The notes beneath the pieces are model-generated. The model was not told where the DNA came from. It did not search any database and worked only from the letters and a program-made list of their open reading frames with translations. Below are positions 4,260 through 55,113 of a stretch of 64,000 bases of DNA, one piece after another. The position numbers and the translations under genes are program-made. Source of the stretch: Trueperaceae bacterium (lineage in GTDB: Bacteria; Deinococcota; Deinococci; Deinococcales; Trueperaceae). Within the stretch, counting starts at the first letter, position 1. Every line of letters begins with the position of its first letter. Where the stretch lies: the NCBI GenBank assembly GCA_965213925.1, contig OZ243927.1, positions 1 through 64,000 on the forward strand. Reading direction: 5' to 3'.

Positions 4260-4277
4260 TATGTCTCGAGCGTCGCT

Positions 4278-5825: not shown

Positions 5826-5826
5826 G

Positions 5827-7968: not shown

Positions 7969-7990
7969 AAAGCAACTTCTGAGAAGGATA

Positions 7991-8030
7991 GAAAAAGCCG
8001 CTTCCCGACATTGTCAGGAAGCGGCTTTTC
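7991..8030. terminator. Bidirectional intrinsic terminator
   Basis: aaaagccgcttcc...ggaagcggctttt between SDR gene and tRNA-Ser. Confidence 0.85.
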
Positions 8031-8034
8031 GGTC

Positions 8035-8128
<94 letters not shown>

Positions 8129-8206
8129 AAGCCCGACCGAGCAGTACGCAAGAGTATACCGCATCAAGCGCGGTTTGTCACGCGCCTACGCCGCACGAAC
8201 TTTAAC

Positions 8207-9853: not shown

Positions 9854-9890
9854 ACGCTATTATCGCCCATTTAGCCCGTTATACTGAGCC

Positions 9891-11045
9891 ATGACCGTTA
9901 CCGTTATCGTATTAGATTCCGTCGGCGTGGGCGCGTTGCCCGACGCCGAGTCCTTTGGCGACGCGGGCGCGCACACGCTCGACCACACGTTGGGGAAGAC
10001 GGGGGTGACGCTGCCGAACTTTCAGAAGCTGGGGCTGGGCAACATCTCGAGCGTCTCCTCTATCGCTCCCGTTGATATCCCTTCGGGCGCTTATGGACGC
10101 CTGAACGAAGTCTCCCCCGGTAAGGACACCACAACAGGGCACTGGGAATTTATGGGCGTACAACTCGGAGAACCGTTCAACACCTTTGAACATTTCCCGC
10201 AAGAGGTCATGGACGCCTTTAGCGAGGTGACGGGGACGGGGCATCTCGGCAACCGCCCCGCCTCGGGCACGCAGATTATCGAAGACTTGGGGGAGGAACA
10301 TTTAGAGACGGGTCAGCCTATCGTCTACACCAGTGCCGACAGCGTCTTTCAGATTGCGACGCATGTCAACATCACGCCGGTAGAAACGCTCTACGAGTGG
10401 TGCGAGGGCGCGAGGGAGATTCTAAAGGGGAAATACGCGGTCGCGAGGGTGATCGCTCGTCCCTTTAAGGGTGAGCCCGGCAGCTTCATACGCATCGGCG
10501 AAGCGCGCAAGGACTTCTCACTGACGCCGCCGCACCCCACCGTGCTCAACGCGCTGCGTGACGCGGGCAAAGCGGTCATCGGCATCGGAAAAATCCCAGA
10601 TATTTACAACCACAGCGGCTTCACGGAGGAGGTCCACACGGACTCGAACCTAGACGGCGTCGAAAAAACCTTGAACGCGATGCGAGAACGCCCGGACGGT
10701 CTCATCTTCTGTAACCTCGTCGAGTTCGACTCGCTCTACGGTCATCGCCGCGACCCGGAGGGCTACGCTGAGGCGTTGCAAGAGGTAGACGCGCGGTTGC
10801 CGCAGCTTTTAGAAACGGTCGGTGAGGGTGACATGCTCTTTTTCGTGAGCGACCACGGCAACGACCCGACGTGGCACGGCTCCGACCACACGCGGGAGCA
10901 CGGGCTTTTGCTCGCTTGCGGCGGACAGACCGCCGACTTAGGGACGCGCCGAAGTTTCGCCGATTTGGGCTCGAGCGTGGCGGAGCTTCTAGGGGTGGCG
11001 TGGGACGGCGCGGGCGAGAGCTTCGCCGCAAAGTTGAGAGGTTGA
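9891..11045 (+). CDS. deoB: Phosphopentomutase
   Basis: [38 protein letters not shown]. Confidence 0.96.
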
Positions 11046-11046
11046 G

Positions 11047-11616
11047 CTAAAGGGCAAATCTTAAAATGGCTCTAGCCCCGACGAGCAGCAACGCCAGACC
11101 AACAAAAGTGAGGTGCTGTGCAAAGGACACAACGTTGCCTTGCCGCCACACCTGCGCAAGTTCGTTTAGCGAGGGCTCGACGAGGGCAAGAAGTTGCGCT
11201 TCGGCGTCCGTCAAGGAGACGATATCGCTCGTCGTGGTGGCGTAGCGAGGTTCTTCCAACGCCTCGTTCTCATTACCTGCGAATGTACCTACTTGCACAT
11301 TCACAGCGTAGGTGTAAGCGTTCGCGGGGAATCCTAGGTAGGTTTCAGGGTCTAGGTAGCGCGCATCCAGATTCAGGAGTACAGCCGCAGGCTGCCCTGC
11401 GCACGACGCCTGCACCTCATAGCGCACCTCGGCGCGGCTGAGTGTAGCTTGTAAGGCGGTCCCTATTCGCGCCCGAACGTCCTCCAAAGAAGCGTGCGCC
11501 TCACCCTCCGGTCCTACGATGTCGGCTTGAACAGAGAGAGGCTCAATGCAGAGCGTGGTTCCCCCTAATCGCGGCTCGAGTTGTCCGTGGTCCGCTAGTA
11601 CAAACGTGCTAACCAA
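11047..11616 (-). CDS. Hypothetical protein with C-terminal TM helix (start uncertain)
   Basis: 189-aa ORF filling the gap; hydrophobic C-terminus. Confidence 0.55.
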   Translation of the reverse strand: MVSTFVLADHGQLEPRLGGTTLCIEPLSVQADIVGPEGEAHASLEDVRARIGTALQATLSRAEVRYEVQASCAGQPAAVLLNLDARYLDPETYLGFPANAYTYAVNVQVGTFAGNENEALEEPRYATTTSDIVSLTDAEAQLLALVEPSLNELAQVWRQGNVVSFAQHLTFVGLALLLVGARAILRFAL

Positions 11617-33880: not shown

Positions 33881-34027
33881 GGTCTAGCCTTACGTTCTGG
33901 TACGTGAAGTGCTGAAACCTTTGAACCTCATGAGAGGTTGGGCGCGGTGAAGCGCCGGAAGTTGAGATTATGGTACGCGAATCTTTGAGGAGATGCAGTG
34001 TGGGGTTTCACGTGGAGGACGTTTCAG

Positions 34028-34438
34028 CTAACTCAACAGATTTATGAAGTCTCGCGCTGTTACGATAGAAACACCTTCAACACGCGCTAAGGCGAGCAAA
34101 TCCCCTTTATCACCGGAAACGATGTACTGCGCGTCTCCTGTAAGAGCCACCGCGATAATGGGATTATCGTCTGGGTCGGGCGAGTAGTCCACCTTTGGTA
34201 GCTCGCGGAGCATCACACCTCGCTTTCTGAGGTGATTTATTAGCGCACCAACCTGATATGGCTTGAGGAGCGGAGCCAGGTGATCGTAACGACTCACAGC
34301 CTTAATCTCTTCAATTTGCCATTCAGAGATGACGAGGTCGAAGGCTCTATCTACTCACAGGTCGAGCGCTTTATAAGGATAGCCTCTATCGGAAATTAGA
34401 GCGGAGATGAAGATACCAGTGTCGAGGACAACCCGCAT
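34028..34438 (-). pseudogene. PIN-domain toxin with internal TGA stop
   Basis: MRVVLDTGIFISALI...KALDL*VDRAFDLVIS...DPDDN...IVSGD; stop at 34355-34357. Confidence 0.85.
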
Positions 34439-34672
34439 TTAGCGGTTGCGCTGGCTACGGCGGTGTTCCCTGACCACATCTTCGACCATTGCTTCGATCT
34501 CTTCCGGGTCAAGGTGAGCGTTACGCTGGTGCGCCTCTTGCAACGCTTGTCGGAACAAGAAGTCAGCGATGGCTTCTTCTGCCACCTCGGACATTGCCTC
34601 CTTCTGCAACCCTCTTTCCGTAAGATATGCTTCTAAGGACTGCTCAGTCTCTTTGCTCAGTTCAATTGTCAT
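34439..34672 (-). CDS. Putative antitoxin (RHH/CopG-like) upstream of PIN gene
   Basis: 77 aa; MTIELSKE; abuts the PIN start codon. Confidence 0.7.
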   Translation of the reverse strand: MTIELSKETEQSLEAYLTERGLQKEAMSEVAEEAIADFLFRQALQEAHQRNAHLDPEEIEAMVEDVVREHRRSQRNR

Positions 34673-34725
34673 AGCTTAAGGATAGACGGTTTCAATAGGT
34701 CGGTCAATTGGAGCAGCTAGATAGA

Positions 34726-35538
34726 TTACGTATCTGTTGAAATATCGTCCCACTCTTGGTTCAAATAACCGATAAGCCAATTTAGAGCGTAGTGTCGCTC
34801 ATAAGTAATTCCAGAGTCCAAGTTAGAAGGCGGTTGTTGACCTTTAACTCTCGCATCCACAACCGCCCAATTATAGCGGTAAACCAAATCTGCTTGATCT
34901 AAGATTTCCGAGAATGGGCGTAGCTGCGCATCAGCAGTGAATTCCTCAGCAGTTCGAGACCACATATAGCGAACAGCTTGACCCGCATCAGCAATTGAAT
35001 CAGCGTCAGGCTTACCAAGCTCGTCAGCATATCCGAGTGCCCATAGCAACGTCCAAGCGGACTCATATCGCCAAGTGAAGTTCACTGAATCTTGCTTCGG
35101 AGGATCAGGATTGTTGATGTAATTTTTTTCTGACGGCGTAAAATGCGTCTCGAGCTGATACTTCTCAATGACCTGCTCAATGACTTCTTGGGGTAAAGGG
35201 TCGCCCTGCGAGTGACTTTCGCCTTTTACAGCGACGACCAATAGAGCTAAGCAGCGATAGGCAATTTCCTCTACTGGACGCGGTGCAGTGTTGCTTTCAG
35301 CTTCGATAACTGGCAACCAATTATTAACGGGCACACCTTGAGCTTTCAAAATCTTTTCTGAACGGACTTTTCTGTCTGAGGCTCCCTGCATATCCTTTGA
35401 TACCATCTGGCTGACCGTAAAATTTTCACTCTTGTCGGCTGCTACTTGACTGAAAGCCACGAAAGCTAGAGGTAAAAGCAGCGAAATAGGTACAAGAGCA
35501 AATCTGAATAGAATATTGGTATCAACGACGACGCGCAT
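34726..35538 (-). CDS. DUF4272-like protein (N-terminus looks chimeric)
   Basis: WRYESAWTLLWALG, YRYNWA, ERHYALNWL, WDDISTDT. Confidence 0.75.
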   Translation of the reverse strand: MRVVVDTNILFRFALVPISLLLPLAFVAFSQVAADKSENFTVSQMVSKDMQGASDRKVRSEKILKAQGVPVNNWLPVIEAESNTAPRPVEEIAYRCLALLVVAVKGESHSQGDPLPQEVIEQVIEKYQLETHFTPSEKNYINNPDPPKQDSVNFTWRYESAWTLLWALGYADELGKPDADSIADAGQAVRYMWSRTAEEFTADAQLRPFSEILDQADLVYRYNWAVVDARVKGQQPPSNLDSGITYERHYALNWLIGYLNQEWDDISTDT

Positions 35539-35725
35539 TTAGCACAGCTTCGTCGATAAGCCTCATGAGTTGGTCTTGGTCTTCGCCTTTGTTGCGCTCT
35601 TTAATGACGCTCACCATCTCAATGAAAACTTGAGTCAGGTCACCCTCTTGCTGCTCTAAAACGTCCATCTGTGCTGCTAATCGCTCGAGCATAGTTTCAT
35701 CGTAGCCCGCCATACGCTGCTGCAA
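35522..35725 (-). pseudogene. Antitoxin-like fragment
   Basis: C-terminus LIDEAVLNARRR overlaps a MRVVVDTN PIN-type start; no good 5' end. Confidence 0.45.
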
Positions 35726-35741
35726 CTTCTGCTGTAATTCC

Positions 35742-36218
35742 TCAGACGCCTACATCTTGAGAAAAGACGACGAAGGAAAAAGCGTCCTCCAAGCCGCAGC
35801 GTTCTGGGTAACTGTTACCGTTCGAGATAAGCCCACAAGGTAGATGTTGATTCAGAAATTTCAGCGTGGGTTTAACGTCTCCATAAAGCTCGATATCTTC
35901 GAAGCGGTGTTTGAGATAGAGCGCGTTGAGGCGAGCAGCGAGGTTTGCGTCGTCCACGCCTATAGATTTGAGCGTTTGAACGAAGGCTTGCAGACGTATG
36001 TGCTCGAGATTCGTCACTTCACCCCTCAACGACTCAGCGACCTCGTTACGAATACGAATCATATCCTCGATGGTCATTTGAGCGGCTGAGACCTCTTTTT
36101 TCAGGTAGGCGAGCACTTTAGATAGAGCGTGACGCATCACCTTCTCAAAATCCCAAAGGGTCATATCGCCGTCGAATGAGATGGCTTGGCATTGTTGTAT
36201 TTTAGCTAAATTACTCAT
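35742..36218 (-). pseudogene. C-terminally truncated HAD hydrolase
   Basis: FDGDMTL motif I and ISNG motif II present; stops at SQDVGV before the KP and GD motifs. Confidence 0.7.
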
Positions 36219-36325
36219 AAGTATTTTACCTTCGCTTATGGCTTCTCTTTTCGGTATTGGCTCGAGGCTTGTAAGAGGTAACTTTCGAAATAGAAGTTTT
36301 ACCTTTGCTCATAGCTTCTCCTCTG

Positions 36326-37006
36326 TCAGTAAAACTGACACGACCAGCGCCATTCACCCGAAGAATCTTTGAAGAAATAGCCGATACCGTTATCAGCCCA
36401 CATCCACTGAGCTTTTTCTTCGCTGCCCACTTGAAAAATAAATTCTTCGATACCTACGCCGTGCTGAACCTCTCGAGGATAACCGCCTACTTTAGTTTGA
36501 TGGTATCTGTTGAATTCCATATAGAAAGCTTCCGATGCTCTCTCATCATTGTTGACATCTGTTAAATCAACGATGTCCCAGGCATCTTCCCACCCCGGTG
36601 CATCATCACTCACAAAATTCCACCTGATAGGAAATGGTCTAACGGGTGACGAGTCAACTTCAGGTAAAGGCCCGAGTCCATCTGTAGAACTGTATTCGCG
36701 AATGAGCCAGCCCTCACCATGAGGGTTGTCGAAGGGATAGTCGTCTCTTTGAAGAAACAGAACGAGTAGCGCAACCTCTTCAAGCGCAGGGGGAGTATAT
36801 GGCAAATCAGAAACTCTGATTTGCAAAAGGGGAAATAACGGTTCACTTTTGTAAACAGGCAAACCCTCATCTGGTTTACAGACACCTCGCCCAAACCAAG
36901 AGGTTGTAGGGTCATCTGATGGGCGAAATCCACCAACTTGGGCAACAGACGCTTTCCTAAGTTTTTGCCTCAGCAAATCAAGAGTTTCCTTAGCTTCTAG
37001 TGTCAT
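36326..37006 (-). CDS. YwqG/DUF1963-like protein
   Basis: PLLQI, TKVGGYP..VQ, WADNGIGYFF, QFY C-terminus. Confidence 0.7.
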   Translation of the reverse strand: MTLEAKETLDLLRQKLRKASVAQVGGFRPSDDPTTSWFGRGVCKPDEGLPVYKSEPLFPLLQIRVSDLPYTPPALEEVALLVLFLQRDDYPFDNPHGEGWLIREYSSTDGLGPLPEVDSSPVRPFPIRWNFVSDDAPGWEDAWDIVDLTDVNNDERASEAFYMEFNRYHQTKVGGYPREVQHGVGIEEFIFQVGSEEKAQWMWADNGIGYFFKDSSGEWRWSCQFY

Positions 37007-43835: not shown

Positions 43836-43911
<76 letters not shown>

Positions 43912-43915
43912 AAAT

Positions 43916-43990
43916 GGCCCCTTCGACTAGCGGTTAGGTCACCACCCTTTCAAGGTGGCGGCACGGGTTCGAACCCCGTAGGGGTCACCA
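43916..43990 (+). tRNA. tRNA-Glu(TTC)
   Basis: CCACC-CTTTCAA-GGTGG, GGTTCGAAC, CCA. Confidence 0.97.
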
Positions 43991-44116
43991 GCAGTTGAAA
44001 AGAGATTGGTATCATCCTAGAGGTGATACCAGCTTTTTTCTCAAGAGGTATCAGAAACAACTTTAAGTCGAGCAGGTTACAACCAATAGCGCTTACTAGT
44101 TGATGATACCGACCTC

Positions 44117-44189
44117 GGGCGATTAGCTCAGTTGGAAGAGCGCCTCCCTTACAAGGAGGATGTCGGCGGTTCGAGCCCGTCATCGCCCA
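44117..44189 (+). tRNA. tRNA-Val(TAC), integration target, no encoded CCA
   Basis: GGGCGAT acceptor, CCTCC-CTTACAA-GGAGG, GGTTCGAG. Confidence 0.96.
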
Positions 44190-44214
44190 CTCAAAAAAGA
44201 GCGTCAGAGACGCA
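44147..44214 (+). repeat. attL
   Basis: 51 bp identical to 53605-53655, extending to 68 bp with 2 mismatches. Confidence 0.95.
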
Positions 44215-44298: not shown

Positions 44299-45717
44299 AT
44301 GTCTAGCTCGCTACCATCACACAGCACAGATAAAAACTTCTTTGAAGTCGAACGCCCCTTAGAGGGTTTCAAGACAGGTATCACGCATGACGAGTGGCTC
44401 GAGCGCGTCAAGCAGTCGTTTGGCGTAGATGATGCAGGGTGGCAAACGCTCATAGAACGTAGCAGGGACACGCCTTCCCCCTTGTTACCTTCTAGGAACA
44501 ATTCAAAGCCAGCCCAAAAGCAGCCTGACCCCTGGACGGAACGCCCCGCGTTCCGCTTCCCCCGCGCTTATGTCCAAGCGTGCGGCAAAGGCACGTTGGG
44601 TCTCAAGTACGAGTCTGGGCGCATCGCCTTCAGTGCCCTTTCCTGTAACTCCTGGAGTTGCCCGTCATGCCGCCCCGCAAAATCAGCGGGATTGTTAGAT
44701 CGCCTGAGACGTGGTTTAGAATCGCGCCCCGATAGCAACCTCGGTCTAGTCACACCGACGCTTGACCCGGCACGCTTCGGCGGCGTTTGCGTGGGTACGG
44801 GCTACTACACCCAAGAAGGTCAGCCCTGGCAACCCTACGCCACGAATAAAACGCAGTTGGACACGCTGTTACGGTCAGGTCAGATACGCGCCGCGAAGAT
44901 GTACGCCGCGCCTACCCCTACGCAGTACGAACGCGCTTATAGAGCGATGAGTAAAGAAATCAACCGTCTCCTCTCTCGACTTCGCCATATTTGTAAAAAA
45001 CTCAACCTGCCTATGTTCGGTTATTTTCGCGTGGTGGAGTTGCACCGCAACGGATGGCCGCACTATCATTTAATCTTTCAACATCCAACGCTGACGGTTG
45101 ACGACGTTGCTACACAGCTTGAGGGATGGTCACTAGGGAGAATTCACTTCGAAGTGATTGAGGCTGACTTTGAGAACGGTAAGAGCGCTATTGATGTCGC
45201 TGTGGGTGAGGTTGCGCCCTACCTCGTAACCTCTGAAAGCTCGCACAAGGCGTACCAGTTTGCAGCGGACGCGCTACCCGCTAACTTTCGCTTGTGGACA
45301 TGCTCACGCGGCTTTCTAGCCGATGCACAGCCCTCCGAGTCAGAAGACCCTGTAGTGCAAGGTATCGCGCTTAAAGGGCACTTCACAGACTATCAGCGGA
45401 TGTACGAGCAGCACATGGTTTCGCGTGAACCGCTCAGCACGTCGTTAGAGCTTGTCCATGTTAAAAAAGGAACGGTGCGCGTTATACCCCCTCAACACAG
45501 ATACAGTGTTACAGCGCTCCCAGACGCGAAAAAACCGAATCAGCCTGTACGTGCAATTTCACATGTCTACCTCAAAGGAGACGACGCGCCTTTGTTCTTT
45601 GCGAACTTGGTTCACGCTGAAACGTTGCACGTGCCGCCGAAGTGGATTGCGCCTGATGGGAAGTTTAGCCAAGAGGACAGATACAAGTTTTTTAAGCTAT
45701 TAGTACGCCGTAGTTAG
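44299..45717 (+). CDS. Rolling-circle replication initiator (HUH endonuclease)
   Basis: CNSWSCPSC Cys cluster, LVTPTLDP motif 1, YFRVVELHRNGWPHYHLI motif 2 (HUH), VAPYLVT candidate motif 3 Tyr. Confidence 0.8.
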   Translation: MSSSLPSHSTDKNFFEVERPLEGFKTGITHDEWLERVKQSFGVDDAGWQTLIERSRDTPSPLLPSRNNSKPAQKQPDPWTERPAFRFPRAYVQACGKGTLGLKYESGRIAFSALSCNSWSCPSCRPAKSAGLLDRLRRGLESRPDSNLGLVTPTLDPARFGGVCVGTGYYTQEGQPWQPYATNKTQLDTLLRSGQIRAAKMYAAPTPTQYERAYRAMSKEINRLLSRLRHICKKLNLPMFGYFRVVELHRNGWPHYHLIFQHPTLTVDDVATQLEGWSLGRIHFEVIEADFENGKSAIDVAVGEVAPYLVTSESSHKAYQFAADALPANFRLWTCSRGFLADAQPSESEDPVVQGIALKGHFTDYQRMYEQHMVSREPLSTSLELVHVKKGTVRVIPPQHRYSVTALPDAKKPNQPVRAISHVYLKGDDAPLFFANLVHAETLHVPPKWIAPDGKFSQEDRYKFFKLLVRRS

Positions 45718-45786: not shown

Positions 45787-46347
45787 ATGATACCTCTTTT
45801 TGAAGCCAATGGGAATCTTCCACCGGGGCTTCATGAAGCTACTTGGCAAGAATTTACTTCGAGGTTTGGAGAAACTAAGCACAGGAGGGAGTTGCTTAAA
45901 GGTCTATATATCGCATTAAAAGCTTTGAAGTTGGCAGGATGTAAGCACGCCTATATAGATGGAAGCTTTACTACTACGAAAGCAGTGCCAGACTTTGATG
46001 GTTGTTGGGATGAGGAAGGAGTCAATGTAGAACTACTATTTGCCACGGAACCCGCTCTTCTTCAGTTTGACAATAAAAGGGCGGCACAGAAAGCAAGATT
46101 GCCAGACGACTTTGATGGTTGTTGGGATGAGGAAGGAGTCAATGTAGAACTACTATTTGCCACGGAACCCGCTCTTCTTCAGTTTGACAATAAAAGGGCG
46201 GCACAGAAAGCAAGATTCGGGGGTGAACTTTTTCCCTCTGGATTTCCCGCCGATAAACAACAGAGAACATTTCTTCAGTTCTTTCAGATAGATAGGGATG
46301 GTAATCCGAAGGGAATTATAGTTCTCGCATTGGAGAGCTTGCCATGA
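45787..46347 (+). CDS. Nucleotidyltransferase-fold protein (DUF6932-like) with internal duplication
   Basis: GNLPPG.H, IDGSF...P(D)DFD pol-beta-like motif, PKGII C-terminus. Confidence 0.65.
   Translation: MIPLFEANGNLPPGLHEATWQEFTSRFGETKHRRELLKGLYIALKALKLAGCKHAYIDGSFTTTKAVPDFDGCWDEEGVNVELLFATEPALLQFDNKRAAQKARLPDDFDGCWDEEGVNVELLFATEPALLQFDNKRAAQKARFGGELFPSGFPADKQQRTFLQFFQIDRDGNPKGIIVLALESLP
45991..46217 (+). repeat. 110-bp exact direct repeat, period 117 bp, in frame
   Basis: 45991-46100 identical to 46108-46217. Confidence 0.95.
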
Positions 46348-47801
46348 TCAAGAATGAGCGACAATACAAGATCACAAAGAATCAAGCAGAGCGTTTTCAA
46401 GCTGCTTTAGAAGACTTAACTCGCACTCAAAATAAAGCGGACATTCACCCTATTCTACTCAAAGCTCAACAAGAGTCTTTAAGTAGTCAATTGGATGATC
46501 TCCTCGAGGAGATTGAAGAATACGAAGCTTTGCAAAGTGGTCACTACTCAGTTGTTGAACTAACCTCGCTAGAAAACTTCGCTCTTGCATTGATTCAAGC
46601 TCGTATAGCTGCAGGACTCACTCAGAATGACCTTGCTGCAAAATTGGGAATGAGAGAGCAGCAAATTCAAAGATATGAAGCAACGGAATATGCATCAGCG
46701 AGCCTTGCTGTCATACAAAAAGTGATTGATGCATTGGGAATAAGTATTCGAGAGGATATATTCTTACCAGGTGTCGATGTATCCCTCAAAAAGTTGTTCA
46801 GCCGATTAAGCAGTATTGGTATTGATCGCGAGTTCGCAACTAAAAGGCTTATACCAACTTCTATCGATCCTGACTTAGAAGAGTACGATGGAAGTCAGGT
46901 AGCTCTACAAATTGCAGCTAATGTGAACCGTGTCTTCGGTATTAGCGCTTCCCAAATCTTTGGAGATAGCACTTTGTTGCTTCCTAGTACGCCCTTAGTA
47001 GCTGCTCGTTTCAAAAAGTCGGAAGTAGTTAATGAGAATCGATTACATGCGTTTACGGTATATGCGCATTACATTGCGGCATTAGTTTTTGATGCCGTAC
47101 AACATCTACCGAAGAGAGCTATTCCCAATGAAGCTGATTTTGTTAGAGAAGCCATTCTGTCAACTGAGGGTACTATTTCTTTTGAAAGCGCTTTGAAGTA
47201 CGCATGGAGTTTAGGTATAGCAGTGATTCCTCTAGCTGACGCAGGGGCTTTTCATGGAGCATTCTGGCGCATAAGGGGGCGTAATTTGATCATACTAAAG
47301 CAACGAAATCAATCACAGGTCAGATGGCTCTTTGACCTTCTCCACGAGATGTATCACGCTGCTCAAGAACCTGAAGCTGAAGAAAGAATGATCATCGAAG
47401 AGGAAGAAATCACGCACTCTGAAGGGGGTTCGGATGATTTCAGCGATTCCGAATGGGAAGAGGTTGAAGCAAGCGATTTTGCAGATGATGTTGTGCTTGC
47501 TGGTATAGCGGATGATCTTGCTAAGCGTGCAGTTGAGCGAGCTAACGGTAGAACTGAGCGCTTGAAAGCTGTTGTGCCTCAAATTGCAGAGGAGGCAAAT
47601 GTACCCGTTGATTCTTTGGCTAATTACATTGCTTATCGTCTATCCCTACAAGGTATGGATTGGTGGGGTGCTGCCACGAATCTTCAGCAAATTGAGCCGC
47701 AGCCTTGGGAGATCGCACGAGAGTTTTTGATAGCGAATGTAGACCTCTCAAAAATTAACCCCATTGATCAAAAACTGCTTATGCAGGCTATAAGTTATTA
47801 G
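46344..47801 (+). CDS. XRE HTH plus ImmA/IrrE-type Zn metallopeptidase
   Basis: ARIAAGLTQNDLAAKLG..QQIQRYE HTH; FDLLHEMYH (HExxH); EVEASDFA. Confidence 0.85.
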   Translation: MIKNERQYKITKNQAERFQAALEDLTRTQNKADIHPILLKAQQESLSSQLDDLLEEIEEYEALQSGHYSVVELTSLENFALALIQARIAAGLTQNDLAAKLGMREQQIQRYEATEYASASLAVIQKVIDALGISIREDIFLPGVDVSLKKLFSRLSSIGIDREFATKRLIPTSIDPDLEEYDGSQVALQIAANVNRVFGISASQIFGDSTLLLPSTPLVAARFKKSEVVNENRLHAFTVYAHYIAALVFDAVQHLPKRAIPNEADFVREAILSTEGTISFESALKYAWSLGIAVIPLADAGAFHGAFWRIRGRNLIILKQRNQSQVRWLFDLLHEMYHAAQEPEAEERMIIEEEEITHSEGGSDDFSDSEWEEVEASDFADDVVLAGIADDLAKRAVERANGRTERLKAVVPQIAEEANVPVDSLANYIAYRLSLQGMDWWGAATNLQQIEPQPWEIAREFLIANVDLSKINPIDQKLLMQAISY

Positions 47802-47810
47802 GAGTTTACA

Positions 47811-48434
47811 ATGACAAAGCAAAGGCGTAAGAAAAGCGACCTTGAACCCCTGAAAATTTCTTGTACTAGTTCGAATTGCGATGAAGATTTACATTGCTTC
47901 AAAGCTACTAGACGAATGAAATTGGACGATGAAATAGGCATGTGTCGTTCTTGTGGCGTTGATCTTGTAGAGTGGGATCGCTTGAATGAGCGTAACTTAA
48001 ATGATGTCGCATATACTTTCGAAGCGTTGAGGAGAGAGCTTATAAGACATTTCTTTTGGCATGTGGATATAGATCAGAAGGCTATAAACTACGCCCGTCG
48101 TAAAGGTAAAAAAGGGATGAAAGAAGCCGTTCGCAAACGCATAGAAAGCTCAGTTGGTCCAGAGCAACCTTATCGCGACGGAACTCAAACTAAAATGCAA
48201 GATTGTGGCAACCCAATTCACTATGCACAACATGCAACCGCCTCGTGCTGTCGCACTTGCATCGAGTACTGGCATGGGATACCAAAAGGGCGTGAATTAA
48301 GTGGAGAAGAAGTAGAATACCTGTCTCAGTTAGTCATCTTGTATGTAAACGAAAGACTACCTTTTCTTTCTGAAAACGGAGAGAAGGTAGCGCCGATTCG
48401 TAAACCAAAACAGAAGGAATTGAGTGCTAAGTAA
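47811..48434 (+). CDS. DUF4186-like Cys/His-rich protein with extra N-terminal Cys cluster
   Basis: PIHYAQHATASCCRTCIEYWHGIPKGREL; CTSSNC..HC and CRSC. Confidence 0.75.
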   Translation: MTKQRRKKSDLEPLKISCTSSNCDEDLHCFKATRRMKLDDEIGMCRSCGVDLVEWDRLNERNLNDVAYTFEALRRELIRHFFWHVDIDQKAINYARRKGKKGMKEAVRKRIESSVGPEQPYRDGTQTKMQDCGNPIHYAQHATASCCRTCIEYWHGIPKGRELSGEEVEYLSQLVILYVNERLPFLSENGEKVAPIRKPKQKELSAK

Positions 48435-49460
48435 ATGGGTTCAGCAAAAGCTATAAATACTGAGTCTGTATCTGCAAGTTATCGCTCAAAAGCTATCGAT
48501 TTAACAAATAAACGAATACTCATCACCAATTTCTTAGACACAGAACAGGAAAAAGACCTTACAACCCCGCCAAACTGTAACGGTTTTGGAAGAATAAGAC
48601 ATTTCCGCCGCCAGACAAGCGATGGTTGGCCTGTCAACCCGCTTCCTATAGACCCGGCGAGTAAGGCTCTAGGCTTATCGCATAGCGATATGATTAGGGC
48701 TCAGGTTTTCCAGAATGCTGTTTGCAATTGGAGATGTTTTTACTGCTTCGTCCCCTTCAGTCTGCTTTCGGCTAATTCTAAGTATTCAGACTGGCTTTCT
48801 GCGTCCGAACTGATGGGTCTCTATCTCGAGCAAAGCACTCCACCATCAATTATTGATCTCACTGGTGGACAACCCGATTTAGTACCCGAGTGGCTTGTAT
48901 GGATGATGCAAGAAATTACTGATCGTAAACTTGAGGAGAAAGTATATCTTTGGTCAGACGATAATCTCAGCACCGACTACTTTTGGAAATACCTTTCGAG
49001 TCGCGAGATTGATCTGATTCAGAACTATGAAGCTTATGGTCGCGTATGCTGCTTCAAAGGTTTCAATGAGTCTTCGTTTGCCTTCAATACACTGGCTGAG
49101 CCTAGCTTATTCTTCCAACAGTTTGAATTGATGAAAAGGCTGCTTTCGCTAAACCTTGATTTGTACTGTTACGTCACCTTCACCACACCTTCTCCCAAAT
49201 ATATCGAACGCGATATGAGTGATTTTATTGATCGGTTGCAAGAACTTGACGAACAGCTACCTTTGAGAACAATTCCTCTCGAAATACAAGTATTTACACC
49301 CGTAGAAAAACGCCTCAAAGATATTCATAGAACGGCGCTGGACAATCAACAAATTGCTGTGCGAGCTTGGCAGGCTGAGTTAGAGCAACGTTTTTCTCAG
49401 GAGGAACGCACACTCAACATAACAGCTATCAAGCTTAGGTCTAGGCAAAGATATAGTTAA
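48435..49460 (+). CDS. Radical SAM protein of unknown function
   Basis: CNWRCFYC (CxxxCxxC); IDLTGGQP (GGEP-like). Confidence 0.9.
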   Translation: MGSAKAINTESVSASYRSKAIDLTNKRILITNFLDTEQEKDLTTPPNCNGFGRIRHFRRQTSDGWPVNPLPIDPASKALGLSHSDMIRAQVFQNAVCNWRCFYCFVPFSLLSANSKYSDWLSASELMGLYLEQSTPPSIIDLTGGQPDLVPEWLVWMMQEITDRKLEEKVYLWSDDNLSTDYFWKYLSSREIDLIQNYEAYGRVCCFKGFNESSFAFNTLAEPSLFFQQFELMKRLLSLNLDLYCYVTFTTPSPKYIERDMSDFIDRLQELDEQLPLRTIPLEIQVFTPVEKRLKDIHRTALDNQQIAVRAWQAELEQRFSQEERTLNITAIKLRSRQRYS

Positions 49461-49480
49461 TGCTTTACTTAGAATAGCTT

Positions 49481-50011
49481 ATGATCAATCCTTCAGTCGA
49501 GCTTTATACGAAGCTCAAGAAAGCTGTATCAGGTGATGTCAAGTGGGAACATCGTATAGAAGCCCTGTCCCATCTCTACAATAGTGGAAATTCCACCCTT
49601 CACATTGCAATATTTATTGAGCCATTTCTTCAATTTGTACTTGATGGAACAAAAACATTGGAGTCACGTTTTTCGGTAAATAAACAAGCACCGTACTTAA
49701 CCTTAAATAGATACGATATCGTTTTAGTAAAACGGTCTGGAGGACCAATCGTAGCCATATCGTATGTAGAAGATGTTTGGTACTACGAACTAGACCCTTC
49801 TACCTGGAATACTATAAAAGATGATTTTTCTGTTCCTTTATGTATAAACAACACCTCTTTCTGGGATCAGAAATCTGCATCACAGTATGCAACTTTGATG
49901 CGGTTAGTCGATGTATTCCCTATTTCACCTATCGAATATAAGAAGCGTGATCAGCGAGGATGGGTAATTGTTGATTTAGAGCCTGTACAAGCGTATATGC
50001 TAGAGCTATGA
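49481..50011 (+). CDS. ASCH/PUA-like domain protein
   Basis: EPFLQFVLDGTKTLESR (GxKxxExR); DQRGW near the C-terminus. Confidence 0.75.
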   Translation: MINPSVELYTKLKKAVSGDVKWEHRIEALSHLYNSGNSTLHIAIFIEPFLQFVLDGTKTLESRFSVNKQAPYLTLNRYDIVLVKRSGGPIVAISYVEDVWYYELDPSTWNTIKDDFSVPLCINNTSFWDQKSASQYATLMRLVDVFPISPIEYKKRDQRGWVIVDLEPVQAYMLEL

Positions 50012-50565
50012 GCACTGTAGTAGTGAGTTTTGCTGGAGCAATAGCAAGCGGAAAAACGACGCTGACAGTAGAAGTGGCGCGGCTACTTAACTGCAAACGA
50101 GTAAGCTTTGGGGATCAAGTTCGTGCTATTGCATTGAAGTGCGGTAAAGAGCCCTCACGCGAAAATCTGCAAGCGATTGGCGAACAGCTAGTAACATACG
50201 ATATTGAGAATTTTTGCCGCGCAGTTCTCAAGCAAGGAGTATGGAAGCCAGGTCGATCTTTAGTAGTTGACGGTATCCGCCATAAAGAAGTACTAGATAC
50301 ATTGAAGATGATAGTCGCTCCGGCAAAGTTGGTACTGGTGTTTATTGATGTAAACCAAAGTACCCTTAGAGAACGTATTGAAGATAGAGCGCTATCAAAT
50401 AGAGAAATTGATGATATCCGACAGCACTCTACAGAAGTACAAGTAAGAAATGTTCTCCCTCTTGTAGCAGACCTTACGCTAGACGGTCGTAAATCGGTTG
50501 ACAAGTTGTCCAAAGAAGTAGTCGACTGGCTTTCTATGTACTCAATTCGAAACAATAAAATCTGA
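50008..50565 (+). CDS. P-loop kinase, NMP/dephospho-CoA kinase-like
   Basis: GAIASGKTT Walker A, SFGDQVR, VVDGIRH, LRERIEDR lid. Confidence 0.85.
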   Translation: MSTVVVSFAGAIASGKTTLTVEVARLLNCKRVSFGDQVRAIALKCGKEPSRENLQAIGEQLVTYDIENFCRAVLKQGVWKPGRSLVVDGIRHKEVLDTLKMIVAPAKLVLVFIDVNQSTLRERIEDRALSNREIDDIRQHSTEVQVRNVLPLVADLTLDGRKSVDKLSKEVVDWLSMYSIRNNKI

Positions 50566-50632: not shown

Positions 50633-51415
50633 TCAGGCAATCTTCCACACCTCATCAACCGCTCGAGTCACATCCACCGTAAAATGAGATCGTCTTTTGG
50701 TATCGTGAATGTTACGTAGCGGGTTTATCTCAATCACTTCATCAATATGGTGCATCGCCCAAGCTTCTGCGATAAGCCTCTCGAGTAACGGCACTTTGCG
50801 CGGCATACCCTGAGTACCGCCAAGAATAGTGTTAGAACTTACCTCTCGCTTTTCGTGAAAGTAGTCTTTGTAGTCGATAAATATGCCTGATGCTCTGAGC
50901 GCCCGCTCAACATCTATAACCTCATGCTTGCTCGTAAACTTATCAAGCTCGTTGATTTTGTACCAAAAGTTTCCTAGTGCTGTCATTTCGAGTTTTCTTG
51001 GTTTTTCTTGTTCCTTGAGCAATCCCAAAAGCGTCCACATTTGCTCATACGCGCTTTTCTTTCGCTCTTCAAGCTCTCTTTTAGGAACATTAAGCCCAGC
51101 TAGGTCGTAAGCAGGGTAAATCGTAAAGGTAACGGGTCTTTCCCAGCACTTAGCAAGAATTTCTAAAGTACTAGGTCTATGCTGTAGATAACGATAGGCT
51201 ACAGCACCCTCACGAAGTTTGCGCTTCTCTTGACGTGTGATAATCGCTAGTACGTAAAGGGCGAACGCTTCATCTAGGGTGAAGCTACCTCTCTGACCAT
51301 AGTTTCCCGGCGAGCTTGGCGGCGGGACGTAACCCCTATTCCACCAGCTATAAATAGTAACCGCCGGAGTCTCGAGAAGCCTCTCCAACTCATCGCGGTC
51401 TATACGCTTCTCCAC
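50633..51415 (-). CDS. Putative regulator with N-terminal MerR-like HTH
   Basis: ELERLLETPAVTIYSWWNRGYVPP...FTLDE; divergent from the xis-int unit. Confidence 0.55.
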   Translation of the reverse strand: MEKRIDRDELERLLETPAVTIYSWWNRGYVPPPSSPGNYGQRGSFTLDEAFALYVLAIITRQEKRKLREGAVAYRYLQHRPSTLEILAKCWERPVTFTIYPAYDLAGLNVPKRELEERKKSAYEQMWTLLGLLKEQEKPRKLEMTALGNFWYKINELDKFTSKHEVIDVERALRASGIFIDYKDYFHEKREVSSNTILGGTQGMPRKVPLLERLIAEAWAMHHIDEVIEINPLRNIHDTKRRSHFTVDVTRAVDEVWKIA

Positions 51416-51511: not shown

Positions 51512-51790
51512 GTGGTAACGCTGTCTACTAAACTGGCACGCATAAGAAGCGAAACTCACCAGCAAGTTACGGAGCTTGCTGAAAGGGAGGGCGTTTCGTT
51601 CGCTGATGCTTTAGAACAGCTTGTGAGGCGCGAAGGCGAAACAGCCGATGCGACCCCGCCAGAGTCCAAAGCGAACGGTCCCATTGAATACGAGGAGCTA
51701 CCACAAGACGAAGAAAGCTCTTCTTTCGGCTCTATCGCAGTAGCGGTTATTGGAGGGCTTATAGGATTAACCCTACTGACACGACGCTAG
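51512..51790 (+). CDS. Small protein with RHH-like N-terminus and C-terminal TM helix
   Basis: LARIRSETHQQVTELAEREGVSFADALEQLV; IAVAVIGGLIGLTLL; AGGAGG nearby. Confidence 0.55.
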   Translation: MVTLSTKLARIRSETHQQVTELAEREGVSFADALEQLVRREGETADATPPESKANGPIEYEELPQDEESSSFGSIAVAVIGGLIGLTLLTRR

Positions 51791-51914: not shown

Positions 51915-52070
51915 ATGCAATTTTTCATAGAGAGATTTCCTAAGCATTATCGCTTTCGTGTTCGTAACTTGCTCTTTGCCATGAAGCATGGTTTACCCGC
52001 GTGTAAGCGTTGGGCAAGAAGCGAACTAAAGCAACTAATAGACGACGCAAATTCAAGGCGTACTAGATGA
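51915..52070 (+). CDS. 51-aa basic hypothetical protein (absent from ORF track)
   Basis: AAAGGA SD; MQFFIERFPKHYRFRVRNLL...; ATGA overlap with xis. Confidence 0.55.
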   Translation: MQFFIERFPKHYRFRVRNLLFAMKHGLPACKRWARSELKQLIDDANSRRTR

Positions 52071-52294
52071 GTACTTCGGCGGCGAAGCTGGAAAACTCAG
52101 ATAAACTCGAGCGTGAAGCCTACACCGTTGCTGAAGTGTCGCAAATGTTCGGCATGTCCTGTAACGCGATCTACGCTTACGTTCGTGCCGGGGACATTCC
52201 CCATAAGCGTCTCGGAAACCGCATCCTCATCCCTAAAAAGCTCTTCCACGCATGGTTAAACAGCGCTGACGCTTGGGAATCCTCCAATGGGTGA
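52067..52294 (+). CDS. Excisionase-like HTH protein
   Basis: YTVAEVSQMFGMS..AIYAYVRAGDIPHKRLGNRILIP; overlaps integrase start. Confidence 0.85.
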   Translation: MSTSAAKLENSDKLEREAYTVAEVSQMFGMSCNAIYAYVRAGDIPHKRLGNRILIPKKLFHAWLNSADAWESSNG

Positions 52295-53438
52295 GGGTAA
52301 GCGCAAGAAGAAGCGAAGTAGGGGTAACGGAGAGGGCTCAATCTACCAACTTGAAAACGGTACTTGGCGGGGACACGTTACGCGCGGTTACAACGATAAA
52401 GGTCGGCAAATCAAGAAGTGGTTTAGAGGACGCACGCGGCGTGATGTAGCCAAACAGCTTAACCAGTACCTGATGCGTTCGGGCTCACGCCTTATCTCTA
52501 TGCCTGAGAAGGTCACGGTACGTGAATGGCTCGAGCGCTACGCTTTGGAGAAAGAAGTCAAGGAGAAGACACGCGAAAGCTATCACTGGATTATACACAA
52601 TCACGTCTTTCCTGTGCTCGGAGAGATGCAGCTTTCCAAGGTGACACCGCTTCATCTCAGACAGTTTCACGCCGCACTGACAGAAAAAGAGCTTTCGGCG
52701 GACTATCGGCGCAAAATCTACTACTTCCTCAATGGAGCGTTTAGAACTGCGTTGCGCGTCGAATTGATAGAGCGTAACCCCGTCAAAGCGTTAGACCCGC
52801 CAAAATCCGCACCGCCGAAAGAAACGCCGATGTGGACGGCAAAAGAAGCGGCGGCGTTTATGAAGCATGTCAAAGAGGAACGACTATACAACGCTTACTA
52901 CATCATGCTCGCTTTAGGGTTGCGTGCTGGAGAGTGTTTCGGGCTCATGTGGGATGACCTCGAGGGCGACGCGCTTCACATAAGAAGAACGCTTACAGTT
53001 GTGAGGCACGAACTTTCTCTCGAGGCACCGAAAACGCCTAGCTCACTTCGAACGCTCTACCTATCGCCCGATCAGATTGAAATTTTTAGGTGTCAGCGTG
53101 AACAACAGAGGCTCGAGCGCAGCACCGCGAAGAGGTGGATGAAGAGCAATTTAATTTTCACTTCAAACGTAGGAACGCCGCTCAGCTTTCGTAACGTCCG
53201 CCGACGCCTTGACCAACTGACAGACCGCGCGGCGGTGACGAGGATAGGGTTACACGGTTTTAGACACACCTACGCGACGTTAGCGTTACTCAGTGGTCTA
53301 CCGCTGAAGGTTGTTTCAGAACGCTTAGGTCATAGCGACATCCGCGTTACCTCACGCATCTATGAGCACATCCACGACAAGCAGCGCCGCGCCGCCGCGC
53401 TGTCGTTGGATGAACTTCTCGAGGAGGTTGAAAAATGA
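52287..53438 (+). CDS. Tyrosine integrase
   Basis: RGNGEGSIYQ arm-binding N-terminus; GLRAGE, PKT, HGFRH, LGH, IYEH catalytic residues all intact. Confidence 0.96.
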   Translation: MGEGKRKKKRSRGNGEGSIYQLENGTWRGHVTRGYNDKGRQIKKWFRGRTRRDVAKQLNQYLMRSGSRLISMPEKVTVREWLERYALEKEVKEKTRESYHWIIHNHVFPVLGEMQLSKVTPLHLRQFHAALTEKELSADYRRKIYYFLNGAFRTALRVELIERNPVKALDPPKSAPPKETPMWTAKEAAAFMKHVKEERLYNAYYIMLALGLRAGECFGLMWDDLEGDALHIRRTLTVVRHELSLEAPKTPSSLRTLYLSPDQIEIFRCQREQQRLERSTAKRWMKSNLIFTSNVGTPLSFRNVRRRLDQLTDRAAVTRIGLHGFRHTYATLALLSGLPLKVVSERLGHSDIRVTSRIYEHIHDKQRRAAALSLDELLEEVEK

Positions 53439-53604
53439 ATTTGACATACGCTGTTACTGGCTGCTTCGTGGCTGCTACGGAAACCCGAAAGACCTGTGAA
53501 GAGGGCAACGCGCCCCTTCACTCCTCTTCACAGGTCTTTCGGGAAAGCTGTGCAGCACGGGAAAACGTCATCACTTTATGCTTACTGGTAAAAGGGAGCG
53601 AGAA

Positions 53605-53672
53605 CCTTACAAGGAGGATGTCGGCGGTTCGAGCCCGTCATCGCCCACTCAAAAATAAGCGTCAGAGACGCA
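53605..53672 (+). repeat. attR (duplicated 3' half of tRNA-Val)
   Basis: ccttacaaggaggatgtcggcggttcgagcccgtcatcgcccactcaaaaa identical to 44147-44197. Confidence 0.95.
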
Positions 53673-54162: not shown

Positions 54163-54555
54163 ATGGATATACGGATACGCTTAGGAGATTACTTAGATGA
54201 GCACGACATCACCCCTTACCGCTTAGCAGCGCAGGCTGAAGGCAAAGCCGCAAAAGGCACGATCTACTCACTGTCTCGAGGTGACGTTAAACGCCTCGAT
54301 CTTGCAACTTTGTCCACTGTGATAGCTGCTTTGGAGGAGCTGACCGGGAAAAGCGTCGAAATCACCGACCTTTTGGAAAAGGTGCAGCCGCGTGAAGCAG
54401 GTATGAGTGCGGCGGGCGTGCCCTACACGGGAGACCCGGAGACCGACGCGGTACTCGACGACCACCCCGACATCTTAGAGCGCATCAAGCGCGTGGAGAC
54501 GGGAAAAGAGGGCAGTCGTCCGCTTAGCGAGGTCATGGCGGAGCTGGGGCTCTGA
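54163..54555 (+). CDS. Cro/C1-type HTH antitoxin
   Basis: RLGDYLDEHDITPYRLA...RLDLATLSTV; antitoxin-like tail RPLSEVMAELGL; directly upstream of RelE. Confidence 0.75.
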   Translation: MDIRIRLGDYLDEHDITPYRLAAQAEGKAAKGTIYSLSRGDVKRLDLATLSTVIAALEELTGKSVEITDLLEKVQPREAGMSAAGVPYTGDPETDAVLDDHPDILERIKRVETGKEGSRPLSEVMAELGL

Positions 54556-54854
54556 CGTACACCGTCAAGCTCAGTGACAGCGCGGCGGCGGACTTGCGGC
54601 GCATCAAGGATAGGCGCACGCAGAAAGCCATTGCGAACGGCTTAGAGCGGCTCGAGACGGAGCCCGCGAAGCGTGGCAAGGAGCTAAAAAAAGACCTACA
54701 GGGCTACTACAGCATCCGCTTAGCGGGGCAGCGCTACCGGGCGATCTATAGCGTCGTCGTGAGTGAGGGCGAGGTAGAGGTGTTGGTTATCGGTATTAGG
54801 AAAGAGAGGGACAAGCGCGATGTTTACGAAGTCGGGAAGAAGCGTCTTCGCTGA
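54552..54854 (+). CDS. RelE/ParE family toxin (probable CTG start)
   Basis: (M)TYTVKLSDSAAADLRRI...LQGYYSIRLAGQRYRAIY...IGIR..RDVY. Confidence 0.85.
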   Translation: MTYTVKLSDSAAADLRRIKDRRTQKAIANGLERLETEPAKRGKELKKDLQGYYSIRLAGQRYRAIYSVVVSEGEVEVLVIGIRKERDKRDVYEVGKKRLR

Positions 54855-54867
54855 GGAGGTGCAAAAT

Positions 54868-55113
54868 ATGACTGTGAACGACTACATGAGGCTCGAGTAC
54901 CCTCACGAGGTCATCTCTTTACCCGCCGACGAGGGTGGCAGTGTATACGTTCGCTGTCCTGACTTCGGCGCAGCAGCGGCGCAGGGCGACGGGGCGACCT
55001 TAGAGGCAGCGCTCGCCGAGGCGAACGAAGCGAAGCGCCTTACTATTGAGGTCTTGTTAGAGGACGGTCGGGATGTAGAGCCACTGCTGATCAGCAGTGG
55101 CTCTGTGCGTTAG
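54868..55113 (+). CDS. HicB-like antitoxin (no HicA seen)
   Basis: DEGGSVYVRCPDF...GDGATLEAALAEANEA; GAGGAGG SD. Confidence 0.75.
   Translation: MTVNDYMRLEYPHEVISLPADEGGSVYVRCPDFGAAAAQGDGATLEAALAEANEAKRLTIEVLLEDGRDVEPLLISSGSVR

Follow-up and report, generated by a model that had tools for sequence, protein, structure and literature searches.

A mobile operon around an unnamed radical SAM enzyme that probably alters nucleotides or nucleic acids as anti-phage defence

Introduction

Can a radical S-adenosylmethionine (SAM) enzyme that is encoded near a nucleotide-kinase-like protein, and that does not look like a viperin, take part in antiviral defence? This question is raised by positions 48435-50565 of a 64,000-nucleotide stretch of DNA from a Trueperaceae bacterium (contig OZ243927.1 of assembly GCA_965213925.1), which we call the window. 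An initial annotation had noted there genes for a radical SAM enzyme, an ASCH protein and a kinase, had compared them with pairs of viperins and kinases, and had suggested that they may provide an independent route to an antiviral nucleotide analogue or to a base modification, with ASCH as its possible reader or detoxifier. We show here that these genes belong to a larger operon, which is mobile and probably alters nucleotides or nucleic acids as a defence against phages.

Results

A radical SAM enzyme outside the named families

The three genes read from the sequence were indeed present as open reading frames (ORFs) of the plus strand, and all four motifs that had been quoted lie within the product of the first one, a protein of 341 residues (48435-49460, plus strand). 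It contains AQVFQNAVCNWRCFYCFVP at residues 89-107, and further on DLTGGQP, WSDDNLS and VCCFKGF. The cysteine triad (C97, C101 and C104, spaced as CxxxCxxC) and the G144-G145 pair were invariant in 45 out of 45 aligned family members, and the alignment disclosed a single extra cysteine, C206, which was near-invariant. An AlphaFold2 model built on this alignment reached a mean predicted local distance difference test score (pLDDT) of 96.3. Compared with the PDB by Foldseek, it gave 22 matches at E ≤ 0.001; the 16 rows listed at this threshold, which leave out further chains of the same PDB entries, were all radical SAM enzymes, each with a probability of 1.00. The protein is a genuine radical SAM enzyme and its motif is not a chance occurrence. 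The best fold matches were QueE (5th5; E 2.3e-5, template modelling score (TM-score) 0.29) and the pyruvate formate-lyase (PFL) activase (3c8f; TM-scores 0.47/0.62), while a viperin-like structure (9dfn) gave TM-scores of 0.45/0.53. As predicted, the structure is modelled with confidence, and what it displays is the generic radical SAM fold only.

A word-indexed search returned 3249 homologous proteins at E ≤ 0.001. The best 120 of these 3249 were 60-99% identical, and their source names read only 'radical SAM' or 'hypothetical'. A phmmer search of 1.84 billion cluster representatives retrieved just 402 clusters at E ≤ 0.001; the family is sharply bounded. The window enzyme missed the gathering score of Pfam Radical_SAM (PF04055; 22.0 bits for a cutoff of 29.5), and many of its close homologues bear a precomputed PF04055 label. 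It reached no curated family cutoff among the Pfam, PADLOC and NCBIfam models, and its matches to curated models were all confined to residues about 86-167. The ArsS, NrdG2, MoaA and QueE models scored it about as low as the viperin model did. Among the 45 family members, weak matches were obtained with the models for viperin (34), ArsS (30), NrdG2 (25), QueE (20) and MoaA (16); the best E value for NrdG2 was 5.5e-10, and all such models remained far below their own cutoffs. When the family profile was compared with the sequences of the PDB, it matched QueE (E 7e-4) and viperin (E 6e-3) in the cluster region only. A PDB search with the single sequence gave nothing useful, and an Atlas search returned only the protein's own unnamed family.

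QueE, PFL-activase and NrdG are thus named by the best fold and profile matches, but the identity is 10-14%, the TM-score on the query does not exceed 0.47 and the scores are far under the family cutoffs. The window family, unlike these enzymes, is extended by 85 residues at the N-terminus and has a helical part of its own at the C-terminus. It did not cluster with a characterised radical SAM family acting on substrates other than nucleotides, which would have spoken against the proposal, and it did not cluster with viperins either.

Comparison with viperins

Viperins have an N.H segment before the cysteine triad, among the nucleotide-binding residues. In the window enzyme the stretch directly before C97 reads Q-V-F-Q-N-A-V. 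The NCBIfam viperin model (NF038283) scored 17.6 bits for a cutoff of 180, and PADLOC pVip gave an E value of 2.3e-4; both matches covered residues 95-161 only. On the query, the Foldseek TM-scores of viperin and viperin-like chains ranged from 0.37 to 0.46, which is no better than PFL-activase (0.47). The suspicion that this enzyme is not a viperin was therefore well founded.

We considered whether it could still be a divergent true viperin that makes a 3'-deoxy-3',4'-didehydro (ddh) nucleotide. More family members match the viperin model than any other, with a best E value of 1.7e-6, and a kinase resembling VakA is encoded nearby. Against this stand the very low and locally confined score, TM-scores that do not rise above that of an activase, and the sharp boundary of the family, and we regard this interpretation as extremely improbable. 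Judged from its sequence, the enzyme is neither a viperin nor a member of another named family.

The ASCH and kinase genes

The second gene of the region (49481-50011, plus strand) encodes an ASCH-like protein of 176 residues. Pfam ASCH (PF04266) matched the window copy weakly (E 0.014; 16.5 bits for a cutoff of 21.2), and it matched 27 of 34 homologues at E ≤ 1, with a best E value of 3.9e-6. The window copy contains LDGTKTLESRF, a GxKxxExR-type motif that we take to be the signature of the ASCH family. Within this motif, G56 and E61 are conserved in at least 90% of the sequences and K58 and R63 in all of them; H41, K155, D157 and W161 are also invariant in the family. The assignment to ASCH would thus be weak for the window copy alone and appears to hold at the family level. 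A PDB search with the sequence gave nothing useful, and with the profile nothing significant, the best matches being two ASCH-type chains at E about 1.

The third gene (50008-50565, plus strand) overlaps the ASCH gene by 4 nt and encodes a P-loop kinase of 185 residues with a Walker A motif and with motifs like those of nucleoside monophosphate (NMP) kinases. It passed the Pfam cutoffs of AAA_18 (47.3 bits for 29.4) and AAA_17 (38 bits for 27). The NCBIfam adk model (TIGR01351) gave 22.5 bits for a cutoff of 168 (E 7e-5), and a search of the PDB with the sequence found adenylate kinase at E 0.018 only. Invariant residues of the family are G10, G15 and K16 (Walker A), G35, R51, G89, R91, H92, R123 and E143; the stretches SFGD..R and DG(I/V)RH are invariant as well and presumably correspond to the NMP-binding motifs of adenylate kinases, which they resemble.

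PADLOC VakA, a viperin-associated kinase, matched the window kinase with an E value of 1.7e-6. Among 32 homologues of the kinase, 19 matched VakA (best E 1.2e-9), 12 matched the PADLOC 'dCTPase' model and 4 matched pVip-kinase, and the idea of a viperin-type kinase partner was to this extent confirmed. The system shares with pVip and its kinase the combination of a radical SAM enzyme with an NMP-kinase-like P-loop kinase in a defence-island or mobile setting. It differs from them in that its radical SAM enzyme fails the viperin models and has only the generic fold in common with viperins, and in that DUF4186, a helix-turn-helix (HTH) Zn-peptidase, ASCH and usually a methyltransferase-like protein with a DPPW motif go with it as partners that viperins do not have. 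The resemblance to a viperin-plus-kinase pair is one of outline only.

We also considered that the ASCH and kinase genes were part of a neighbouring system. This was rejected because the two genes overlap each other and follow the radical SAM gene in most loci, and because one ASCH-radical SAM fusion exists.

A six-gene operon

Six plus-strand genes, separated by -4, 9, 0, 20 and -4 nt, form an operon at 45787-50565. Their order is DUF6932, HTH-Zn-peptidase, DUF4186, radical SAM, ASCH and kinase, and 48435-50565 is the 3' half of this operon.

To define the conserved set we used a scan with one genome per species, which gave 182 confirmed loci, and searched the best 80 of these 182 by tblastn with eleven proteins of the element that carries the operon; several of the loci are cut by contig ends. 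The HTH-Zn-peptidase and DUF4186 were each found in 77 of the 80 loci, ASCH in 68, the kinase in 67 and DUF6932 in 57. The idea of a self-contained pair of radical SAM enzyme and kinase had therefore to be given up, since two upstream genes accompany the radical SAM gene more constantly than ASCH or the kinase do.

The DUF6932 protein (45787-46347, plus strand) is nucleotidyltransferase-like and was clearly recognised by Pfam (PF22014; 130.9 bits for a cutoff of 27). It also matched the PADLOC candidate PDC-M63A (E 3.3e-11). A DGSF..P.D.D stretch is conserved in its family, and its nearest named Atlas clusters are NTP_transf_2/Polbeta (0.80-0.83), which serves as a lead only; its profile found nothing significant in the PDB. 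The window gene contains a perfect 117-bp tandem duplication (45991-46217; 1.9 copies, 100% match in Tandem Repeats Finder), which adds 39 in-frame residues. As these residues were seen in no relative, the duplication is recent and possibly disruptive.

The next gene (46344-47801, plus strand), overlapping the previous one by 4 nt, encodes a protein of 485 residues with an XRE-type HTH (Pfam HTH_3, E 6e-11) and an HExxH Zn-peptidase motif, resembling RmrA and ImmA and thereby a putative regulator or antitoxin. H334 and H338 were present in 77 of 77 sequences and E335 in 76 of 77. The PADLOC RmrA models matched partial stretches only (35 to about 80 residues), the best match (E 6.7e-8) extending over 35 residues, and the NCBIfam spr1629 repressor/antitoxin model matched with E 6e-7, far below its cutoff. 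According to the accessible parts of two reports, RmrA is the HTH-Zn-peptidase antitoxin of the phage-defensive RosmerTA systems, in which it is paired with varied toxins (PMC10440598; bioRxiv 10.1101/2022.05.11.491447). As far as these texts go, the likeness comprises the N-terminal XRE-type HTH, the HExxH Zn-peptidase and the position beside a variable partner gene that it overlaps. The window cassette differs in that the RmrA match is partial and in that five or six further genes are present, four of them for enzymes.

The DUF4186 protein (47811-48434, plus strand; 207 residues) passed the Pfam cutoff (PF13811; 98.7 bits for 25) and has a Cys-rich N-terminal extension. The stop codon of its gene abuts the start codon of the radical SAM gene. 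Two groups of residues, mostly cysteines and histidines, are invariant: C18, C23, H28, C45 and C48 in one, and C146, C147, R148 and C150 in the other. Its structural model (pLDDT 91.1) found no structure in the PDB by Foldseek at E ≤ 0.001, and a search of the PDB with the sequence gave nothing useful. A predicted complex of DUF4186 with the radical SAM enzyme scored 0.00, which counts neither way. Escherichia coli YneG is an orphan member of the DUF4186 family to which the partial sources at hand assign no function.

The cassette in other genomes

The gene order in the 80 loci was nearly always that of the window, and these best 80 loci covered more than a dozen phyla. Radical SAM proteins with 49-67% identity were found across Cyanobacteriota, Chloroflexota, Acidobacteriota, Planctomycetota, Bacteroidota, Actinomycetota, Pseudomonadota and Bacillota and in a metagenome-assembled genome (MAG) of Thaumarchaeota. 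Cultured carriers of the cassette include Paenibacillus sp. HW567 (L060) and Kribbella sindirgiensis DSM 27082 (L040), and Nostoc sp. C117 and Tolypothrix carry it on plasmids (L007, L010).

In most loci the radical SAM and ASCH genes are separated by about 1.3 kb, filled by one further gene for a protein of about 425 residues, which we call gene X. This methyltransferase-like protein has a winged-helix-like N-terminus, an invariant DPPWY motif and a conserved C-terminal domain of its own, and Pfam N6-adenineMlase matched it weakly; its profile found nothing significant in the PDB, the best match being the HI0767 methylase (E 0.13). Gene X is missing from the window cassette, where just 20 nt lie between the radical SAM and ASCH genes.

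We compared the architectures and built a quick maximum-likelihood tree for 79 rows, namely 78 loci and the window; one locus that also lacks gene X (L057) was dropped. Gene X and ASCH occurred together in 56 rows, ASCH without gene X in six (the window, L038, L041, L046, L048 and L067), and the kinase directly after the radical SAM gene, without ASCH, in three (L025, L049 and L060). Seven rows were too short to tell and seven were otherwise arranged. On the tree the rows without gene X were scattered and the phyla intermixed: the Thaumarchaeota MAG stood among bacteria, and Paenibacillus stood with Planctomycetota and Chloroflexota. The six rows with ASCH only called for six changes, of which well-supported branches force at least two. 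Such a distribution suggests that the cassette was transferred horizontally and that gene X was lost repeatedly.

Fusions also occurred. In L001 (6326-8011), DUF4186 and the radical SAM protein are read as a single ORF of 561 residues; one chain of 490 residues (P0224) unites the C-terminal part of a radical SAM protein, the gene X C-terminal domain and ASCH; and a protein of 559 residues (P0130) has a weak match to a Polbeta nucleotidyltransferase ahead of the radical SAM part. These fusions support the idea that DUF4186, ASCH and perhaps a nucleotidyltransferase act jointly with the radical SAM enzyme. No fused form longer than 598 residues was found, in a search that amounts to weak evidence.

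Gene X of L001 comes as two separate ORFs (7972-8703 and 8764-9276); like the joining of DUF4186 and the radical SAM protein in this locus, this may be a real variant or an error of MAG assembly. Two other cassettes are interrupted, L019 by about 2.9 kb between DUF4186 and the radical SAM gene (4117-7001) and L020 by about 3.4 kb between the radical SAM gene and ASCH (7993-11413), with transposase genes nearby.

Defence genes and mobile elements around the cassette

For 36 loci we scanned the two nearest ORFs of at least 110 residues on each side of the cassette, 139 ORFs altogether, and counted PADLOC matches at E ≤ 1e-20 as strong. A strong neighbour was present in 14 of the 36 loci; this is a raw count without a random-gene baseline, and the cyanobacterial loci are related. 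The neighbours comprised pAgo with a nuclease, PycC and PycTM (Pycsar), a CBASS cyclase or E2, dGTPase, AbiEi/Eii, type I and IIG restriction enzymes, DruE, SoFic, NsnB and HmaA. A fifteenth locus, with an ABC-ATPase-like model only, was discounted. The setting is defence-like, in a suggestive way and with no measured enrichment.

Genes for an integrase, transposase, relaxase, recombinase, coupling protein or ParB were found near the cassette in 13 of the 36 loci. The radical SAM gene occurred in seven plasmid records, six of them conjugative, and in Roseovarius pTHAF8_a the cassette lies between transfer genes. A tblastn search of 50,697 phage records with the radical SAM protein gave no match. 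The available portion of a report on Tolypothrix lists HTH, DUF4186, ASCH and AAA ATPase genes in an 18.4-kb plasmid insertion and assigns no function to them (PMC9679502).

In Dehalococcoidia loci the cassette adjoins a dCTP-deaminase-like gene (L016 10399-11208, L022 3176-3997, L028 10473-11276 and L030 2277-3152), which in L016 comes directly after the kinase gene on the same strand. Of the 32 cassette kinases, 12 match PADLOC 'dCTPase'; the kinase and this deaminase-like protein may be functionally linked. At its kinase end, the cassette of cyanobacterial loci adjoins a gene for an HD protein of the dGTPase type (L005 10389-11825, L007 10650-12080, L012 10398-11822 and, as a fragment only, L001 10781-11404), with PADLOC dGTPase matches reaching an E value of 7e-77.

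The integrative element in the window

An integrative element of 9.46 kb carries the operon of the window as its cargo. It is inserted in a tRNA-Val gene (44117-44190, plus strand; ARAGORN), and its ends are marked by a 77-nt direct repeat: attL (44138-44214, plus strand) is 92% identical to attR (53596-53672, plus strand), a copy of the 3' part of the tRNA gene (direct repeat D2), and the two are spaced by 9458 nt. The repeats enclose a Rep-like gene, the six genes of the operon, two unassigned ORFs and the genes for an excisionase and an integrase. The GC content across 45-52 kb is 0.40-0.49, compared with about 0.60 around it.

The Rep-like protein (44299-45717, plus strand; 472 residues) passed the Pfam REP_ORF2-G2P cutoff (32.8 bits for 27.8) and showed a weak match to Phage_GPA. 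One unassigned ORF (50633-51415, minus strand; 260 residues) had no Pfam, PADLOC or NCBIfam match, and the other (51512-51790, plus strand; 92 residues) had a weak NCBIfam match to YlcI/YnfO, below the cutoff. The excisionase-type HTH protein (52067-52294, plus strand) matched Pfam HTH_17 (48.6 bits) and the NCBIfam excise model (33.5 bits for 28.8), and the tyrosine integrase (52287-53438, plus strand) matched Pfam Phage_integrase (71.5 bits) and Phage_int_SAM_3. The Rep-like protein, the two unassigned ORFs and the excisionase were found in none of the 80 related loci, and the integrase in one; the Rep-like gene therefore belongs to the backbone of the element and not to the cassette. As this gene is present besides those for the integrase and excisionase, the element, once excised, may replicate in the manner of a small plasmid.

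Three tRNA genes (Lys-UUU, Glu-UUC and Val-UAC; 43836-44190) precede the element, the last of them being its integration site. Just outside attR, three small plus-strand ORFs (54163-55113), the middle one ParE/Gp49-like (Pfam ParE_toxin, 25.5 bits), are probably a toxin-antitoxin set. A second patch of low GC content (0.46-0.49) at 34000-37000 encodes, on the minus strand, a DUF4272 protein, a HAD-like hydrolase and DUF1963 proteins. It adjoins a gene for a branched-chain amino-acid permease and may be another acquired islet.

Discussion

What the operon would do

The best reading of these data, which we put forward tentatively, is that the operon is inducible, serves defence and produces or alters a nucleotide. 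In such a system, the RmrA/ImmA-like HTH-Zn-peptidase would restrain the operon or its effector, by itself or with DUF6932, as in RosmerTA. Once released, the DUF4186-radical SAM pair would use a SAM-derived radical to alter a nucleoside monophosphate or a similar nucleotide. The NMP-kinase-like protein would then phosphorylate the altered nucleotide towards an active di- or triphosphate, which may interfere with phage nucleic-acid synthesis, while ASCH, together with gene X in most relatives, could tailor, read or clear the modified base. A free nucleotide is slightly preferred as substrate because the kinase is nearly universal and NMP-kinase-like and because some lineages do without ASCH and gene X. 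The nearest weak models of the radical SAM family, which are mostly nucleotide-related (viperin, NrdG2, QueE and MoaA), were also counted in favour of this reading. The analysis shows the gene content and structure of a conserved operon, its mobility and wide transfer, its defence-type neighbourhoods, and intact catalytic motifs in the radical SAM enzyme, the kinase and the peptidase; the defence role, the free nucleotide as substrate, the sequence of events and the parts played by ASCH, DUF4186 and DUF6932 are inferred from these.

Several observations weigh against it. The matches of the radical SAM enzyme to nucleotide-using families lie in the cluster- and SAM-binding region only and are far below the cutoffs, and its weak matches also include ArsS and peptide maturases. 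The kinase misses the ADK cutoffs (17.3 bits for 26.8 in Pfam). ASCH, which is PUA-like, the fusion of radical SAM, gene X and ASCH parts, and the DPPWY motif of gene X would suit a nucleic-acid substrate as well. The defence role is read from sequence and genomic context; 22 of the 36 loci had no strong defence neighbour, and PADLOC 2.0.0 contains no model for the radical SAM, DUF4186 or ASCH proteins. Finally, the window cassette itself may be reduced or partly impaired, since it lacks gene X and carries the duplication inside DUF6932.

Other explanations

The strongest rival is that the cassette modifies bases in a nucleic-acid polymer (DNA, tRNA or rRNA), and this has almost the same likelihood as a nucleotide-making defence, though it is still doubtful in itself. 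The DUF4186-radical SAM pair would be the acting part, gene X would participate in most relatives, ASCH would dock on or read the target, and the kinase would activate a base or sugar position. The modification could serve the element as a self-mark or as an anti-restriction mark, or it could be toxic and be released upon infection. This rival owes its rank to the ASCH fusion (P0224), to the DPPW-containing gene X and to the known pairing of ASCH with AAA_17 proteins near predicted base modifiers. The Cys/His-rich N-terminal extension of DUF4186, the near-invariant C206 of the radical SAM enzyme and the frequency of the cassette on plasmids and islands also agree with it. Some radical SAM enzymes that act on nucleic acids use an extra cysteine.

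In its accessible portion, Bell et al. 2020 (PMC7641849) describes ASCH as a PUA-like fold that is said to bind RNA or modified DNA, and reports that ASCH recurs next to a GNAT enzyme, often with an AAA_17 ATPase, in predicted base-modifying operons. These (PIN)-GNAT-EVE operons, as presented in that part of the paper, share with the window cassette an ASCH protein and an AAA_17-type P-loop protein that accompany a predicted base modifier; in the window the modifier is a radical SAM enzyme and not a GNAT, EVE and PIN are lacking, and the likeness is one of domain names. Modification of a polymer is made less attractive by the absence of a nuclease or other obvious restriction partner from the cassette in the Pfam and PADLOC scans, by the repeated loss of gene X and the absence of ASCH from three loci, by kinase motifs like those of small-molecule NMP kinases, and by the fact that no DNA- or RNA-modifying radical SAM family stands out among the fold and profile matches. 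A P-loop kinase and a radical SAM enzyme also take part in thymidine hypermodification, in pathways that phages encode and direct at their own DNA. These pathways would resemble the window system in that such a pair works on a nucleobase, but the window enzyme has no homologue in the phage records.

The cassette could also be mainly a toxin-antitoxin or addiction module of the RosmerTA type, in which DUF6932 or the radical SAM module would be the toxin and the HTH-Zn-peptidase the antitoxin, stabilising the element with no dedicated anti-phage chemistry. The HTH and HExxH peptidase architecture is that of RmrA, the toxin-first order with its 4-nt overlap fits, the cassette is always on islands or plasmids, and such pairs are described as toxin-antitoxin systems in the accessible text of the two RosmerTA reports (PMC10440598; bioRxiv 10.1101/2022.05.11.491447). 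We consider this unlikely as the main function, as four more enzymes are conserved with the HTH-Zn-peptidase and as DUF6932 is absent from 23 of the 80 loci whereas the HTH-Zn-peptidase, DUF4186 and radical SAM genes stay. It overlaps with the nucleotide-centred defence that we prefer, because RosmerTA systems themselves defend against phages, as stated in the part of PMC10440598 at hand. Even less probable is a small biosynthetic cluster for a secreted natural product of nucleoside or peptide type. The weak matches of the radical SAM enzyme to the peptide maturases PapB, HxsB/C and SkfB and to BlsE and DesII of nucleoside pathways would agree with it, but neither the ORF list nor Pfam revealed a precursor peptide, transporter or scaffold enzyme in the cassette, which is moreover very uniform across phyla in defence and mobile contexts.

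Significance

The proposal of an antiviral nucleotide or base modification is upheld in part by the non-viperin radical SAM enzyme, the VakA-like kinase and the defence setting; its nucleotide part is not singled out, as the partners fit a nucleic-acid target about equally well. In the literature that was searched, to which subscription journals and preprint supplements did not belong, we found no description of the cassette or of its radical SAM family; the DUF4186 papers in it were none of them functional and no DUF6932 paper was found.

There is a fair chance that the cassette represents a radical-SAM-based, nucleotide-centred defence with categorically new chemistry. It is possible, though rather doubtful, that it is an unrecognised immune system of prokaryotes at large, in which a new radical SAM enzyme and DUF4186 would make a new modified nucleotide by a chemistry unlike that of viperins, with kinase, ASCH and methyltransferase partners and an RmrA-type switch. 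To our knowledge, viperins are the only radical SAM family established in antiviral immunity. If the defence role is true, a second, unrelated family would join them and would bring new antiviral nucleotide or nucleic-acid chemistry, possibly including new chain-terminator-like compounds. From cyanobacteria to an archaeon, this family is found at 49-67% identity, always with the same partners, and it moves on plasmids and islands. The cassette would also place two orphan families, DUF4186 (including E. coli YneG) and DUF6932, in a functional context for the first time, and as a compact operon of six or seven genes carried by cultured strains, it is directly testable.

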